Of a DNA stretch of 61,373 bases, positions 5,219-61,373 are shown in pieces (the first letter of the stretch is position 1; the number at the start of each line of letters is the position of its first letter). The DNA comes from Candidatus Nomurabacteria bacterium (GTDB lineage: Bacteria; Patescibacteriota; Minisyncoccia; Phycocordibacterales; UBA5272). Location: the NCBI GenBank assembly GCA_943354975.1, contig CALRDS010000001.1, positions 1-61,373 of the forward strand. The letters are read 5' to 3'. Below the pieces are notes generated by a model. The model was given only the letters and a program-made list of their open reading frames with translations. It was not told the DNA's origin and made no database searches. Both the position numbers and the translations under genes were made by a program.

Positions 5219-5246
5219 AAAATAAAACTCCGCCGTAGCGGAGCCT

Positions 5247-5591
5247 TCAAGCTTTCTCCTTTCGTTCTTTTTGACCTCTGTTGATTTTGTCCAGTCTTTG
5301 CTGTCTTTCTTCAGCCAGTGTTCGCAAATACGCGCGCCGAGCTATTTCTAATTCATCAACTTTCTTGGCTTTCTTTGTTTCCCTAGCTTCCTCGGTTTCT
5401 TTTTGTCTTTGGTCGTAGATCCATTTTTTCTCTCGAATCCAATCCTCGGCTATAGATTGTTTTCTAAATCTTTCTACCGCCATTTTGTGTTCACTACGTG
5501 GAATTAGGCTTTTGGCAATTAGGAACAGTGCGAAGGCAATAATGAGAGTTACCGCCACCAACTCCAGCTCCTCTATAATGAAATTAATCAA
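5247..5591 (-). CDS. small single-pass membrane protein with charged coiled-coil tail (cassette L)
   Basis: The track ORF is trimmed to the TTG preceded by GGGAG. TTGCCT (5647-5652), 17 nt, TATGAT (5624-5629). Terminator CTCCGC-cgta-GCGGAG at 5228-5243. Confidence 0.5.
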   Translation of the reverse strand: MINFIIEELELVAVTLIIAFALFLIAKSLIPRSEHKMAVERFRKQSIAEDWIREKKWIYDQRQKETEEARETKKAKKVDELEIARRAYLRTLAEERQQRLDKINRGQKERKEKA

Positions 5592-6651: not shown

Positions 6652-6701
6652 ATAGTCAAATTAGTATAACAAATGTAAATAGCATCTATTTGAGTTATAA
6701 A

Positions 6702-6921
6702 TAAATAAGAGGCGACATTGCTGCCGCCCCTAGGTGACTGGAAATTTACCGTAGAAAAGGCAGATATAGCATGCCATTCCCGCGAGCTTCCACTGTATTA
6801 GAGTCGCCAGGCCGGAGTCGTAAATTCCGGGCACTTGAGGGGTGTTATTCCCACGGGCGTTACGGAAGCCTGCTTATTTTATTTGCGCCAATTTTCGGCC
6901 TTGTAACGGTATTATCCAAAC
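6702..6921 (-). ncRNA. unclassified structured RNA (~215 nt), 6S-like architecture possible
   Basis: TTGACG (6951-6956), 17 nt, TATTAT (6928-6933) directly after the dnaB stop. The body is GC-rich with nested pairings TACCGT/ACGGTA, AAGGC/GCCTT, GCTTCC/GGAAGC, CCGGA/TCCGG. Terminator GGCGGC-AGCAAT-GTCGCC (6711-6728) plus a T-rich tail. No ORF. Confidence 0.5.
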
Positions 6922-10063: not shown

Positions 10064-11311
10064 ATGCAGAGATTCTCAATCGCTCCACACATAAAAAGAC
10101 CGGCAACGGCTACCCCTAGAAAAGTATTTAAACACTTAGGTATAGTTATCTTTATAGTTGCGTTATTTTGCGTAGGAGTCATAGTTGGTGCGGCATTAAA
10201 TAATAATACGTATGCGGCAGATGGGAAAGTAGATAGCCCACTTCTTTCTCAAGTAAAAAGTAAACTAGACGAGAAGCTTATTTTTTGGAAATCATCTTCA
10301 ACATTACCAACAGATAAAGAGCTTGAGTACGGAATGATAAGAGGATACGTAGATAGTTACAAAGATCCTTATACTGTGTTTTTCCCTCCAGCTGAAGCAA
10401 AAAGCTTCGCAGAAAATGTACAAGGTTCTTTTGGAGGTGTAGGTATGAACGTAGGTATGAAAGATGGAAGTATCGTGATAATTGCACCGCTTAAAGACTC
10501 TCCAGCTATGAAGGCAGGAATTTTAGCCGGGGATATCATTACTGCAGTTGATGGGAAAAGTATGATAGGGTTTTCTTCTGATCAAGCCGTTAATATGATT
10601 CGTGGTCCAATAGATACAAAAGTAGTTGTAACAGTACTTCATAAAAACGCAAAAGAAGTTTCTGATATTACAATAATACGTAAAGAAATAAAAATCCCGA
10701 CGATTGATACAGAAAAGAAAGACGGAGTATTCATAATACATTTATATAATTTCTCTGCCGAGTCTCCTGAATTGTTCCATACAGCATTAAATGACTTCAT
10801 AACTTCGGGTTTGAAATATCTGGTTATTGATTTACGAGGAAACCCAGGAGGATATCTAGAAGCATCAGTAAAGATGGCAAGTTTTTTCTTGAAAGAGGGT
10901 CAGGTGGTTGTAAGTGAGAGACAGGGAAAAGACGAAACAGTAGTTAACCATAGAAGTTTAGGCTTAACTGGATTACTCTCTGATACAAAAGTGGTTGTTT
11001 TGGTAGACGGAGGTTCTGCATCAGCGTCAGAAATATTTGCTGGAGCATTAAAGGATCAGGGTGTTGCAAAAATAGTTGGTGAAAAAACCTTTGGGAAAGG
11101 CTCTGTCCAAGAGTTGGTGAATTTTGAAGGTGGATCGTCTCTTAAAGTAACTATAGCAAAATGGTATACACCATCTGGGATAAATATATCCGTAAGTGGA
11201 ATCAAATCAGACGTTGAATCTGTTGCCACAACAACAGTTAAAGGAAAGGATGGTAAGCCGGTAGACACTCAGCTTTTAAAGGCTATTGAAGTAGTAAAGA
11301 GAGTGGGTTAG
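10064..11311 (+). CDS. carboxy-terminal processing protease (S41) with PDZ domain
   Basis: The track ORF is trimmed to ATG 10064 (MQRFSI...), because the longer form overlaps cysS. PDZ GDIITAVDG, S41 motifs DLRGNPGG and GGSASASEIFAGAL. Confidence 0.9.
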   Translation: MQRFSIAPHIKRPATATPRKVFKHLGIVIFIVALFCVGVIVGAALNNNTYAADGKVDSPLLSQVKSKLDEKLIFWKSSSTLPTDKELEYGMIRGYVDSYKDPYTVFFPPAEAKSFAENVQGSFGGVGMNVGMKDGSIVIIAPLKDSPAMKAGILAGDIITAVDGKSMIGFSSDQAVNMIRGPIDTKVVVTVLHKNAKEVSDITIIRKEIKIPTIDTEKKDGVFIIHLYNFSAESPELFHTALNDFITSGLKYLVIDLRGNPGGYLEASVKMASFFLKEGQVVVSERQGKDETVVNHRSLGLTGLLSDTKVVVLVDGGSASASEIFAGALKDQGVAKIVGEKTFGKGSVQELVNFEGGSSLKVTIAKWYTPSGINISVSGIKSDVESVATTTVKGKDGKPVDTQLLKAIEVVKRVG

Positions 11312-18759: not shown

Positions 18760-18958
18760 TTTGGGCACTAGTCGCAATTTATAAATTTCCCTCATGGGTG
18801 ATTTTTATAAATATCCCATATCTGATATTGGTGTCGTTTGCCACTATTTTACAACTGACCACACTATCCCTAAATCGCTAAATAAGGGGCCTTACAGAGC
18901 AATATATGCCAAATTACAAGGGGCTGAAGAGGTGTTTAGAAAAACTCTATAACTCCAA

Positions 18959-19081
18959 AGTCTTTGTAAATTTGGAGCCAGTTCTAGGCGCGGAGAAACG
19001 AGTGAGGAGACGTACGAAATAGTACGTTAACGAGTGAGAGAGGCTTCGCAACGAAGAAATGGCCCAAATTTACAAAGACTT
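18959..19081 (+). repeat. R element copy a, flanked by perfect 18-bp inverted repeats
   Basis: AAGTCTTTGTAAATTTGG (18959-18976) and CCAAATTTACAAAGACTT (19064-19081). The core at 18984-19058 carries GAGGAG, ACGTAC-GAAATA-GTACGT, and ...CGCAACGAAG. Confidence 0.6.
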
Positions 19082-19117
19082 ACCAAAAGACAATAAATAT
19101 GGTAAAATGTCTAGTAT

Positions 19118-19870
19118 ATGTCAGAAAAGGTATATTTATACGGCAAACATTCTCTACGTGAAGCCCTTATGGCTATTAAGCGCGAAGATCCTCTAATAAT
19201 TGATAAGATTTATTTAACACAATCTGTCGTTACCGATCCAAAAATAGTTAGTCTTTTGCAAAGTAATAAATTTTCTTATTCTACTGTAACAGCAGACGAA
19301 ATTGATAGCATGGTTGGAAAAGATGCAATTCATCAAGGAGTATGTGCACAAATAAAAGAAAGTACTCTTTATACTCCATTAGATAGGGTTTTACAAAAAG
19401 CAAAAAATAAATCTGCTAATTCTCTTTTTGTACTTATGGATGAACTTCAAGACTCACATAATGTCGGCGCCATAATCAGAAGTGCGGTAGCATTCGGAGC
19501 AGATGCAGTTCTCATACCCGAACACAATCAAACCCAAATAACAGCGACAGTTATAAAAACTTCTTCAGGAATGGCTTTTGCTATACCAATAGTAAGAATT
19601 GGAAATATAAATACGACTCTAACTAAACTAAAAGAAAATGGATTCTGGACTTATGGACTAACTGGTGACGGAGATACTAAATTAGATGAAACAAAGTTCG
19701 ACGCGAACACTGTAATAGTGGTCGGTGGAGAAGGTGTAGGAATTCGTGCGAAGACACTTGAGCTATGCGACTTTAAACTTTCAATAAAGATCAACTCACT
19801 TTGTGAATCGCTGAATGCGTCAAATGCAGCCGCCGTGACTCTTTACGAATGGAATAAGCAAAATAACTAA
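19118..19870 (+). CDS. SpoU/TrmH-family RNA 2'-O-methyltransferase (RlmB-like)
   Basis: N-terminal substrate-binding domain, then SHNVGAIIRSA..FG, VVGGEG.G and SLNASNAAAV motifs. Confidence 0.85.
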   Translation: MSEKVYLYGKHSLREALMAIKREDPLIIDKIYLTQSVVTDPKIVSLLQSNKFSYSTVTADEIDSMVGKDAIHQGVCAQIKESTLYTPLDRVLQKAKNKSANSLFVLMDELQDSHNVGAIIRSAVAFGADAVLIPEHNQTQITATVIKTSSGMAFAIPIVRIGNINTTLTKLKENGFWTYGLTGDGDTKLDETKFDANTVIVVGGEGVGIRAKTLELCDFKLSIKINSLCESLNASNAAAVTLYEWNKQNN

Positions 19871-41093: not shown

Positions 41094-41183
41094 AACATTA
41101 ATAGTTTAAGTTTTTGTTCAATAAAATTTCAAAATCCCAATAATAATTTATTTCAATTCCTCAGAACGAAACAAATTGACCGA

Positions 41184-41264
41184 GATACGAAGCGCAAAAA
41201 GTTTTTGGGAGGAGATGTAGTTAAAGCTACATTGACCGACAAAAATGATGTTGTAACAAAGTAG
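41184..41264 (+). repeat. R element copy c (between grpE stop and dnaK promoter)
   Basis: GATACGAAGCG...GTTTTTG-GGAGGAG-ATGTAG-TTAAAG-CTACAT-TGACC..CAAAAAT...GTAACAAAGTAG. Ends 5 nt before the grpE stop codon. Confidence 0.6.
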
Positions 41265-41269
41265 ATTGG

Positions 41270-41917
41270 TTAAGCTGTTTCGTTATGACCAACGTGCACT
41301 CGGGCGGGACGGATAACGGTATCATTCATTCGGTAACCAGACTGTAGCACTTTTACTAGTTTACCATTTTCATCTTCGTTTGTAACGTTTACCATTTCCA
41401 TACTTTCGTGGAGTGCTGGATTAAATTCGTCTCCAATTTTACCGAACTGCTCTACCCCTTCTTTTTCTAATACAGATCGTAATTGCCCAAATATATATTC
41501 TATACCAACACGCCAATTTGAATCAACTTTTTCCCAGGATTCTACATTTCCTTTTGCCATATCATAACCATCAAGTACTGGAAATAATTCTTCAATGAAT
41601 CGCTTTGTGGCAAACTTTCTATCCATAGCACGATTAGACTCTACTTCTTTTTTAAAATTTGCATAATCTGCGCGCGTGCGTTGACTTAAATCCAAATACT
41701 CTTGTTTTTCAGATTCAAGTTTTTTAATCTTCTCACGAAGCTTTTTTATAGTTGTTTTTACATCCACCTCTCCCTCTTCATTTACTTCTTCAAAAGATAT
41801 GTCTTCATCACTCTTCGCTCCTTGAGAAACATCATCAGAATTTTCCGTTGAAGTCTCATGACTTATCGCTGATATTTCTTCGTTGTTAATTGTTTCAATT
41901 TCTTCTTCATTTTTCAT
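41270..41917 (-). CDS. grpE: nucleotide exchange factor GrpE
   Basis: Acidic N-terminus, a coiled coil with R..AD..N.KK, and C-terminal G...H.A......G.V..V...GY......IRPA.V. Confidence 0.9.
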   Translation of the reverse strand: MKNEEEIETINNEEISAISHETSTENSDDVSQGAKSDEDISFEEVNEEGEVDVKTTIKKLREKIKKLESEKQEYLDLSQRTRADYANFKKEVESNRAMDRKFATKRFIEELFPVLDGYDMAKGNVESWEKVDSNWRVGIEYIFGQLRSVLEKEGVEQFGKIGDEFNPALHESMEMVNVTNEDENGKLVKVLQSGYRMNDTVIRPARVHVGHNETA

Positions 41918-42630: not shown

Positions 42631-42789
42631 GAAGAAACCTCCCAACCAAGAACAGAATTTACTTGCTTAATTGCAAGAATATTTTAAATACTACAGAAAA
42701 TATATAATAAATCAAATTAACCAAAAAGCTTCCAATTTCTATGATTTCTTGTTAATTATTATATTTTGTAAACATATAATATTGAAATG

Positions 42790-42871
42790 AATACAAGACG
42801 CAAGGAATTTTTACTACCAAGACGTACACATGGTACGTCGCGTTGAGAAAAAATCCTGAGCAACGCAGTAG
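42790..42871 (+). repeat. R element copy d
   Basis: AATACAAGACG..GGAATTTTT...GACGTAC-ACATG-GTACGTC...AAAAAATCC-TGAGCAACGCAGTAG. Flanked by AATATTGA/TCAATATT. Ends 12 nt before the stop of the rpsI-tail mini-ORF. Confidence 0.6.
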
Positions 42872-42883
42872 TCACTCAATATT

Positions 42884-60339: not shown

Positions 60340-60440
60340 CAATTTGTTTCTAACACCACCTCACGACCCTTAGATTGGGGTCATTTTTATTTTCAAACAA
60401 AAAGCAAAACTTGGATTTATAAAGCAGAAAAATTGGTTTA

Positions 60441-60520
60441 GATACGCGGCGTGAGCGATTTTTATGAGGAGACGTAGATAGAACTACGTTGACGATTAAA
60501 AATCGTGAGCAACAAAGTAG
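60441..60520 (+). repeat. R element copy b
   Basis: GATACGCGGCGTGAG-CGATTTTTA-TGAGGAG-ACGTAG-ATAGAA-CTACGT-TGACGAT-TAAAAATCG-TGAGCAACAAAGTAG. Ends 5 nt before the lysS stop codon. Confidence 0.65.
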
Positions 60521-60525
60521 ATGAA

Positions 60526-61373
60526 CTAATTTTTCGGTTTTATTAGAGGGAACATGTGGACCTCGCGAATAGGCTTATCTGCCAAAAATGCAAACAACCT
60601 CTCTCCAAATCCAAATCCACAAGTCGGTGGCATGCCGTGTTCAAGCATTTCTACAAAATCATGGTCTGCCATCATGGCTTCTTCATCCCCTCCTGCAAGA
60701 AGCACCTGTTGAGTATCAAATCGTGCACGCTGATCAATTGGATCATTTAATTCACTGTAACCTTTTCCGATTTCACTGCCAGCTAAGATTGGTTGGAATA
60801 ATTGCGCGGTCTCTTTGTCAGGATTGGCCTTTGCAAGTGGTGCCACAAGTAATGGATGATTAATTAAAAATGCTGGGCCAGAAATATTCTTGCGACAATA
60901 TTTCCAAAGTGTATCAATCAGTCTTTCGCGATTCGTACCATCATACTTAACTTTTAGCTCATGAAGCTTATCTTTGATCTCTTGGTCAGTGGATTCTTTT
61001 ATATTTATATGCGTTTGACGGAATATTTCATCTGTATAATCAAGTCGCTTCCATTCCTCACTTAAATCAAAAGCATGTCCACGTGTAGTGAACTTTGTAG
61101 TTCCAAATACTTCTGTGGCAATTTTTCTGTACAACTCCTGTACTAGATTCATGCCGTCTTCATAATCCGCATATGCCATGTAAAATTCACAATTAGTAAA
61201 CTCTTGCACATGTTCCGGAGAAGATCCTTCATTTCTATATACTCGTCCGATTTCAAATGTTTTAGGAAATCCAGCTGCCATAAGTCTCTTTTGCCAAAGT
61301 TCACCAACAGATATTCTCATGAATACATCTAAATCAAAATCATTATGATGTGTAGCAAAAGGTCGTGCTTCTG
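60526..61373 (-). CDS. lysS: lysine--tRNA ligase, class II (N-terminus outside window)
   Basis: The frame stays open to the window edge (..EARPFATHHNDFDLDVFMRISVGELWQKRL..). Motifs 2 and 3 are present, with GMPPTCGFGFGERL. Confidence 0.95.
   Translation of the reverse strand, partial: EARPFATHHNDFDLDVFMRISVGELWQKRLMAAGFPKTFEIGRVYRNEGSSPEHVQEFTNCEFYMAYADYEDGMNLVQELYRKIATEVFGTTKFTTRGHAFDLSEEWKRLDYTDEIFRQTHINIKESTDQEIKDKLHELKVKYDGTNRERLIDTLWKYCRKNISGPAFLINHPLLVAPLAKANPDKETAQLFQPILAGSEIGKGYSELNDPIDQRARFDTQQVLLAGGDEEAMMADHDFVEMLEHGMPPTCGFGFGERLFAFLADKPIREVHMFPLIKPKN

Follow-up and report, generated by a model that had tools for sequence, protein, structure and literature searches.

REP, BIME and REPIN sequences, which in Proteobacteria go with RAYT, are dispersed extragenic palindromes found at gene 3' ends and between operon genes, often by stop codons; the copies occur singly, in tandem and as inverted pairs and show long persistence at orthologous sites, and REPINs are whole-hairpin units of ~100 nt. 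ERIC, Correia and MITE-like repeats are imperfect palindromes of ~125 nt inserted in transcribed intergenic DNA, which can alter the ends of open reading frames (ORFs) and have orientation-dependent effects. The attC sites are imperfect hairpins of 57-141 nt in which structure and not sequence is conserved; they start at or overlap the stop of the preceding gene, and their active folded strand is antisense to that gene. Among transcribed hairpins, processing stalks of the rRNA type, which are RNase III substrates, form a paired stalk of about two turns that flanks a conserved RNA and is sequence-free but covarying, while intrinsic (bidirectional) terminators are stable hairpins at gene ends, often between convergent genes. 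Here we describe elements that resemble each of these in the respects just named, the attC-like placement being a likeness of geometry only. They were found in a 61,373-nt stretch of Candidatus Nomurabacteria DNA (GCA_943354975.1, contig CALRDS010000001.1, positions 1 to 61,373; hereafter the window, meaning the stretch at its full length), and they belong to a large, previously undescribed family of rod-shaped hairpin elements of ~125 nt, which we call rods.

Four rods in the window and their family

A sequence-only reading of the window had reported four copies of a structured repeat (a to d), all on the + strand, and all four are present where it placed them. A covariance model (R1), built from 66 homologues with a seed that held three window copies and not copy c, recovers exactly four sites in the window with filters off, the next best scoring 12.4 bits or less. 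An alignment of the four copies by MAFFT, which that reading had proposed as a check, displays the common blocks; the stretches it delimited fold better than dinucleotide shuffles (z -3.0 to -5.7, + strand), and the inner hairpins and A/T-rich outer stems it quoted are correct when compared with the sequence and the folds. The element is therefore real but had been drawn too short, as a locus-specific, near-perfect helix (P0) continues outward and brings the rods to 124-128 nt. The rods and the parts of rod d are the following.

18958-19081, + strand: rod a, 124 nt; fold -54.1 kcal/mol, z -8.4; model match 18968-19071, 87.5 bits
41161-41288, + strand: rod b, 128 nt; fold -46.4 (+) versus -25.3 (-) kcal/mol, z -6.0; model match 41172-41276, 77.4 bits
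42768-42894, + strand: rod c, 127 nt; fold -34.0 kcal/mol, z -3.1; model match 42778-42883, 36.9 bits, E ~8e-7
60419-60543, + strand: rod d, 125 nt; model match 60429-60532, 83.4 bits
60419-60440, + strand: 5' arm of the basal helix P0 of rod d, pairing with 60521-60543 in the fold
60456-60464, + strand: CGATTTTTA, which pairs with TAAAAATCG at 60497-60505 to form helix P2 of rod d, by sequence and fold
60466-60495, + strand: conserved core of rod d, comprising GAGGAGA (60466-60472), the P3 hairpin CGTAG-ATAGAA-CTACG (60473-60488) and TTGACGA (60489-60495)
60365-60392, + strand: canonical intrinsic terminator (hairpin and T-run) belonging to the + strand gene upstream; 26 nt separate its end from rod d

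Covariation was followed in a structure-blind MAFFT alignment of 66 copies, for which RNAalifold gave a consensus of 22 pairs; with P2 added by hand the structure counts 28 pairs. Double-sided changes occur in 15 of the 22 consensus pairs and in 21 of the 28. Paired cells amount to 91.0%, as compared with 29.6-42.3% when the partners are slid, and cells with double-sided changes number 456 against 146 ± 10 in shuffles, with none of 500 shuffles reaching the observed count; the covariation score is 0.607 against 0.18 in the control. The signal persists as copies are added, another check that had been named beforehand: at 141 distinct sequences, in an alignment that is model-fitted and leans towards structure, 25 of the 28 pairs show double-sided changes. 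Within P2 all six modelled pairs do so across the family. These results, together with the compensation seen between orthologous copies (below), bear out the proposal that pairing is kept while the paired bases change and that a folded single strand is selected. Chance similarity or neutral drift of a duplicated segment, which the earlier reading had already set aside, could draw on the low complexity of the A/T-rich stems only; it is refuted by the covariation statistics, the 144 homologues and the constant architecture, and we give it next to no credence.

The length of the rod is fixed (median 125 nt; 120-129 nt in 91 of 130 rods). From base to tip it consists of P0, a conserved AGAU/AGAU module, a 3-bp helix, a purine-rich loop (RAGGC / AAC-RMA), the variable helices P1 and P2, the nearly invariant GAGGAGA/UUGACGA and a 7-bp tip hairpin with a free loop, so that the nested helices, thought to be two, number at least four. 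P0 is unique in sequence at each locus and measures ~22 bp throughout the family, with arms of 20-23 nt on the 5' side in 85 and on the 3' side in 74 of 105 rods. The core columns (GAGGAGA, P3 hairpin, TTGACGA) are conserved at 85-100% in the 141 distinct copies, the positions of GAGGAGA/UUGACGA at 85-97%. When GAGGAGA is laid antiparallel to UUGACGA, the succession G·A, A·G, G-C, G·A, A·G, G·U, A-U becomes possible; its central G-C covaries (113 GC, 11 CG, 6 UA) and its G·U is almost invariant (123 of 141). The purine modules may form tandem sheared G·A pairs. By the same sequence and by the covariation of the central G-C, GAGGAG, which had been taken for single-stranded, probably lies within a non-canonical purine helix; its suggested role as an exposed Shine-Dalgarno or anti-Shine-Dalgarno sequence is not supported, since it is most likely paired with UUGACGA.

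Copy a, which was believed to have no outer stem, does have one: its P1 is GCGGAG/CUUCGC and its P2 contains tandem G·A (CGAGU/GUGAG), a common subtype found in the same form at loci L015, L028, L036, L046 and L069. Its basal helix is perfect over 18 bp. Rod c is the most degenerate of the four, with ACCAAG in place of GAGGAG. Elsewhere in the family, L039 (1411-1780) holds three rods head to tail, essentially without spacer, of which the outer two are near-duplicates and the middle one lacks GAGGAG and diverges in its core (ACGAGACGUAU...AUACGUUGAGUG).

The exact pattern GAGGAGAYGTAS-N4-8-STACRTTRAC, scanned against one genome per GTDB species, matched 105 stretches, nearly all of them in metagenome-assembled genomes (MAGs) of Patescibacteria (Candidate Phyla Radiation, CPR), with hosts among Paceibacterota, Nomura-, Kaiser-, Zambryski- and Uhrbacteria. 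The other hosts, by deposited label, are three independent 'Myxococcales' MAGs, Omnitrophota MAGs and some Gammaproteobacteria or Saccharibacteria bins. The flanks of the pattern matches display one architecture throughout. The covariance model finds 144 copies in 100 sources, ~45 of which do not fit the exact pattern, and the copy density is about one per 15-18 kb; what had looked like a family of four copies thus has hundreds, in many genomes. One 'Myxococcales'-labelled locus has 67-70% GC and ordinary bacterial genes, and either the family extends beyond low-GC Patescibacteria or the high-GC bins are mislabelled. A high-GC subfamily, with AAGCGA for AGGCG and AUCGCG for CAAC, occurs in genomes of ~68% GC ('Myxococcales'-labelled L068, L007, L017, L029, L054, L061, L093 and L098). 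The exact core pattern has no match in IMG/VR viral contigs, and a phage origin was rejected on this ground.

The rods do not correspond to a described RNA family either. Rfam 15, searched with the whole window both at gathering thresholds and at E <= 10, returned tRNA only and nothing at any copy; the stretches around copy d and the best-scoring member of the family (L016) gave only chance matches of 8-14 bits, and eight further loci gave no family at gathering. This is the Rfam search that the sequence-only reading had called for, and its statement that the motif matches no known class holds for the window copies and the best members. Besides, the core sequence was not found in the searchable literature, where topic searches gave no description.

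Strand, gene ends and insertion

The strand under selection for folding is the + strand of the window copies. In 93 of 96 rods it is the more stable strand by free energy, with a mean gain of 14.7 kcal/mol; for rod d (60406-60555) the fold reaches -48.4 kcal/mol (z -9.6) on the + strand versus -23.6 on the - strand, and rod c is an exception, its - strand folding slightly better (-40.1 versus -34.0). The mismatches tell the same strand. The modelled stems contain 182 G·U versus 74 A·C and 129 G·A versus 15 C·U; in the outer P0, counted ungapped and model-free, there are 94 G:T versus 24 A:C (p = 6e-11). In clusters at least 80% identical, 62 pairs are compensated and G·U exceeds A·C by 29 to 3. 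Among strict orthologues, too, compensation is seen at 8 of 11 and 6 of 11 variable pairs, and 7 G·U stand against 1 A·C. In the standard model of strand-biased deamination it is the non-template or lagging-template strand that deaminates, which predicts the opposite sign, so we rejected, by inference, a mutational bias behind the asymmetry and read it as selection.

The position of the rods is equally regular. Of 127 rods, 97 (76%, p = 2e-9) have a convergent gene on their 3' side. Measured from the last paired base of the rod, the stop codon of this gene lies at -3 to +3 nt in 35 of 90 cases and at -19 to +4 nt in 64. The folded strand is thus mostly antisense to the gene whose stop the rod touches and, as the 3' end of the rod abuts that stop, the mRNA of the gene carries the weaker reverse complement. 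Orientation follows the local gene and flips over a few hundred bases: convergent genes can have a head-to-head pair of rods between them, with each rod antisense to the gene beside it (L090, L088, L021), and tandem rods lie back to back without spacer (L039). On the 5' side there is a spacer, often with a canonical intrinsic terminator or the promoter of the next gene.

The window copies illustrate this range of settings. The 3' arm of rod d overlaps the stop of a convergent lysS-like gene (TAG, - strand, 60526-60528), and the ORF at 60526..61320 (-) matches tRNA-synt_2 (Pfam). This lysS-like ORF (window 60526-61373) seems to run beyond the end of the window; as listed, it begins at an internal ATG and covers the C-terminal catalytic part only. 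Rod b lies inside the grpE-dnaK-dnaJ operon (GrpE, HSP70 and DnaJ Pfam matches) and is antisense to it, its 3' arm holding the final four GrpE codons and the TAA stop (41270-41272); a + strand promoter is predicted 34 nt upstream of it, divergent from the dnaK promoter. Rod a has a + strand gene on either side, in the minority 'sense' arrangement, and lies 36 nt ahead of the downstream one, which encodes a SpoU-type methyltransferase (Pfam), and a promoter-like site of this gene starts at the end of the rod. In the region 19080-19120 this site, TTACCA-17-TGgTAAAAT, ends 9 nt before the methyltransferase ATG (19118) and would make the mRNA leaderless or nearly so. Rod c lies between divergently oriented genes (gene calls in L141).

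The rods could be 3'-untranslated-region (3'-UTR) or intercistronic elements of their own mRNA, of the REP, ERIC or non-canonical terminator kind, with the reverse complement as the working form. This reverse complement is certainly transcribed in some cases, such as copy b in its operon; the rod starts at the stop codon, and canonical terminators, where present, lie beyond it (16 of ~77). All the strand tests contradict this reading: the mRNA strand is the one on which G·U is rare and A·C common (74 versus 182, 24 versus 94 and 3 versus 29 in the counts above), on which the fold is weaker in 93 of 96 rods and on which the conserved modules become pyrimidine-pyrimidine mismatches; the mutational biases considered would, by inference, favour the opposite asymmetry. 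We regard the 3'-UTR explanation as improbable. An ordinary terminator was rejected outright for lack of a U-run: a T-run (at least six T in the eight bases after the hairpin) follows only 3 of 127 rods, and the mirror A-run is found in 4 of 127. A cis-regulatory leader was likewise rejected, only 24% of the rods having a co-directional downstream gene.

When -10-like hexamers were searched for, no promoter emerged at a constant upstream distance. A conserved upstream ATTG had suggested a promoter of the Bacteroidetes type, which was rejected because the ATTG is part of the basal helix. These results bear on the proposal of a trans-acting small RNA family or protein sponge, whose core, freed from the basal helix, would titrate a protein or, via GAGGAG, the ribosome. 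The deep conservation of the core beside freely variable helices speaks for it, as do a constant-length basal helix that could serve as a processing stalk and the many paralogues per genome at the density given above. Yet such an RNA would have neither a fixed-distance promoter nor a terminator after the rod, some copies have a terminator directly ahead of them, GAGGAG is probably paired, and the precise relation to a stop codon is not expected of free-standing RNA genes. A small RNA of this kind has, in our estimate, a slim chance of being the answer.

Insertion brought the rods to their places, at the last codons of genes or inside them. Relatives of the window GrpE are encoded at 35 metagenomic loci, and in only two of these (L108 and L115) does a rod follow grpE, the rods being 77-81% identical and likewise antisense; at nine other loci grpE and dnaK are separated by an empty spacer of 20-105 nt. 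Comparison of filled and empty sites places the rod directly after the conserved ...GGTCAT (Gly-His) codons of grpE. The ancestral GrpE tail F-E-K... has been swapped for N-E-T-A, N-N-K-N or S-D-K-N, the rod supplies the TAA stop, and the old tail (TTTGAA...) has been pushed to the far side of the rod; no clear target duplication appeared in this comparison. At a tenth locus (L109, 3077-3270) the grpE-dnaK junction carries an unrelated G+C-rich palindromic insert (gtcatcctcgcgaatgcggggatcc...gggaatgac), so the site after grpE appears to tolerate insertions of small palindromic elements.

After insertion the fold has been preserved by compensatory changes. Compensated changes make up most of the differences between rods at strictly orthologous sites, namely those that follow an nrdB-like gene in six MAGs and those that follow grpE in three sources. 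Rods within one MAG have a median identity of 65%, and 5% of the within-MAG pairs are 80-92% identical versus 0.4% between MAGs, a figure that may miss identical repeats, as these break assemblies. We take this as evidence for some recent spread, with most copies being old. In the Zambryskibacteria MAG PPGI01 four contigs (L009, L074, L087, L091) start or end inside identical rods, which suggests several identical copies that break the assembly. A Logan contig with the window grpE ends ~200 nt past grpE, within ~110 nt of the rod end.

Such a history invites a second reading, the main rival of the one we prefer below: a strand-specific single-stranded DNA (ssDNA) element, whose + strand hairpin would be the substrate of an HUH transposase (RAYT/IS200-type) or of an attC-like tyrosine recombinase. 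This would make the rods long-lived replicators in the manner of REPINs or attC sites, their fold kept by the need of the enzyme. Insertion without conservation of terminal inverted repeats or a clear target duplication would suit it, and so would the within-genome pairs at 80-92% identity, the identical rods at contig ends of one MAG, the tandem and inverted clusters resembling BIMEs, a fixed rod length, and the fact that no promoter is required. An antisense folded strand starting at the stop codon is the geometry of the attC bottom strand, and among mismatches in DNA none is more stable than G·T and G·A. The orientation of the rods, however, tracks the neighbouring gene and not the direction of replication; a replication-oriented ssDNA element was rejected because orientation flips with the local gene and head-to-head pairs occur. 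No transposase, integrase or reverse transcriptase was found among the window ORFs scanned with Pfam, which were 50 of the main ones. Around ~100 rod-bearing 8-kb loci, whose ORFs were clustered, no protein family recurs beside the rods: no cluster is present in more than 8 loci, and the recurrent ones are housekeeping genes. Most within-genome copies are old and divergent and lack a master sequence, and the core is kept across phyla, unlike that of REP sequences. Finally, orthologous copies compensate in place, which needs either selection at the level of the host or the continued activity of every copy. Altogether, we consider the ssDNA element unlikely, with a share of probability that is still substantial.

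What the rods may do

The reading that we tentatively prefer, while holding it short of probable, is that of an RNA module, likely protein-bound, which would act as a strand-specific barrier or processing site for transcripts entering the 3' end of the adjacent gene. The active form would be single-stranded and most likely RNA. The conserved purine modules would form tandem sheared G·A pairs and serve as the docking site of a conserved protein, and the basal helix, constant at two turns, would offer a measured duplex such as RNase III or other double-strand-binding proteins use. Since the folded strand is directed into the 3' end of the neighbouring gene, we propose an orientation-specific barrier or processing site, whose targets would be transcripts running antisense into that gene, produced either by read-through out of a convergent neighbour or divergently at the next promoter. 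The mRNA of the gene itself would carry only the weaker, motif-less reverse complement, which would be tolerated. Barrier or cleavage would account for the position and orientation of the rods, for the lack of a promoter of their own, and for head-to-head pairs and tandem copies. The almost invariant G·U and the covarying G-C inside the purine module are RNA-like features.

Several observations weigh against this proposal. As G·T and tandem G·A are stable in DNA too, the strand asymmetry cannot separate RNA from single-stranded DNA. The + strand rod RNA is a predicted molecule. Of 21 convergent arrangements, 8 have a + strand terminator ahead of the rod, and no promoter-like site was found between the terminator at 60365-60392 and rod d; at such places + strand RNA could arise through read-through only. 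The non-convergent rods (24%) fold equally well. The elaborate conserved core is left unexplained by termination, for which a plain hairpin and a U-run would suffice, and no candidate partner protein emerged from the genes beside the rods, among which no family recurs. The insertion history and some recent within-genome copies would fit a selfish element equally well.

A wider proposal, which is possible but doubtful, is that the rods are the nucleic-acid half of an undescribed system common to Patescibacteria, Omnitrophota-labelled and some Myxococcales-labelled genomes, either a gene-end ribonucleoprotein insulator or a strand-specific hairpin replicator of a new class. As an insulator, the measured 22-bp helix and the tandem G·A modules would stop or cut antisense transcripts; in either form the folded strand would, by design, stay out of the host mRNA.

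The ultra-small Patescibacteria account for a good part of bacterial diversity and have genomes of ~1 Mb with almost no characterised non-coding elements. At the density found here a 1-Mb genome would hold tens of rods, whose covariation signal matches in strength that of established RNA families and whose core crosses phyla, yet they are absent from Rfam and the searchable literature. A fold selected opposite to the gene it touches is an odd geometry, and it would mean either that streamlined genomes have an unrecognised policing of antisense or read-through transcription, or a new single-strand mobile element. In practical terms, rods rewrite protein C-termini (GrpE) and break assemblies, and they can be annotated with the R1 model.

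Three further observations concern other parts of the window. Between the recR-like and dnaB genes lies a G+C-rich intergenic island of ~180 nt (6700-6885; ~50% versus 36% in the window). It contains AAAUUCCGGGC, which is reminiscent of the P4 region of RNase P; the island has no Rfam match even at E <= 10, and its fold z-scores are only -1.3 and -0.9. At 10986-11126 (-) there is a sub-threshold Rfam match to Rickettsia sR47 (38.6 bits, gathering 60), inside an opposite-strand peptidase S41 ORF, and at 5224-5311 (-) a sub-threshold match to RsmY (27.1 bits, gathering 57); both are probably due to chance.

Comparison with known systems

Several motifs and architectures were tried against the conserved positions. 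In TIGR-Tas systems, hairpin units that bear unpaired dual spacers form arrays beside a Nop-domain Tas gene (PMC12045711). In the rods, by contrast, the variable segments are paired, the copies are dispersed and no Nop-domain gene is adjacent. TIGR-Tas, box C/D and kink-turn (K-turn) were rejected for their different architecture and the lack of a 3-nt bulge in the rods. The sarcin-ricin loop, the hairpin ribozyme, SECIS and a single-stranded DNA promoter (with TTGAC as -35) were considered as well and did not fit these positions. Nor do the rods match retron non-coding RNA or multicopy single-stranded DNA (msDNA), with no reverse transcriptase in the scanned window ORFs or recurrent in the loci, and tens of copies instead of one locus.

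Among RNA hairpins, the rods differ from processing stalks of the rRNA type in that cleavage is proposed only, the enclosed RNA measures ~80 nt and there are tens of copies per genome. They differ from intrinsic terminators by the lack of a U-run (3/127) or A-run (4/127), by the presence of canonical terminators beside them in the same genomes, and by a conserved core that termination does not need.

The nearest kinds are REP/BIME/REPIN, ERIC-type repeats and attC, and the likeness is one of lifestyle and geometry, not of family membership. As compared with REP, the rods have no short unit of the 5' GTAG type and no doublet of short palindromes; no RAYT-like gene lies by any of ~100 loci, and no transposase was detected in the 50 Pfam-scanned window ORFs. 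REP and REPIN elements come as many near-identical copies per genome around a master, whereas the rods of one genome are mostly old and divergent; the rods also have a cross-phylum core and a strong gene-orientation rule. The attC sites possess mutually pairing RYYYAAC/GTTRRRY core sites that the rods lack, the conserved AAC standing opposite AGGC and not GTT. Nor do the rods form cassette arrays or come with an integrase among the scanned window ORFs; their neighbours are housekeeping genes in conserved synteny, and between grpE and dnaK it is the rod alone that is present or absent. In contrast to ERIC, Correia and other MITE-like repeats, the termini of the rods differ at every locus and the interior is conserved, with no clear target-site duplication, and their conservation reaches far deeper than the genus level. 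No known repeat or RNA class explains the rods, which we file with the dispersed structured palindromes, and among these they are unusual in combining a core conserved across phyla, a rod fixed at 125 nt and selection for folding on the strand that opposes the host gene.

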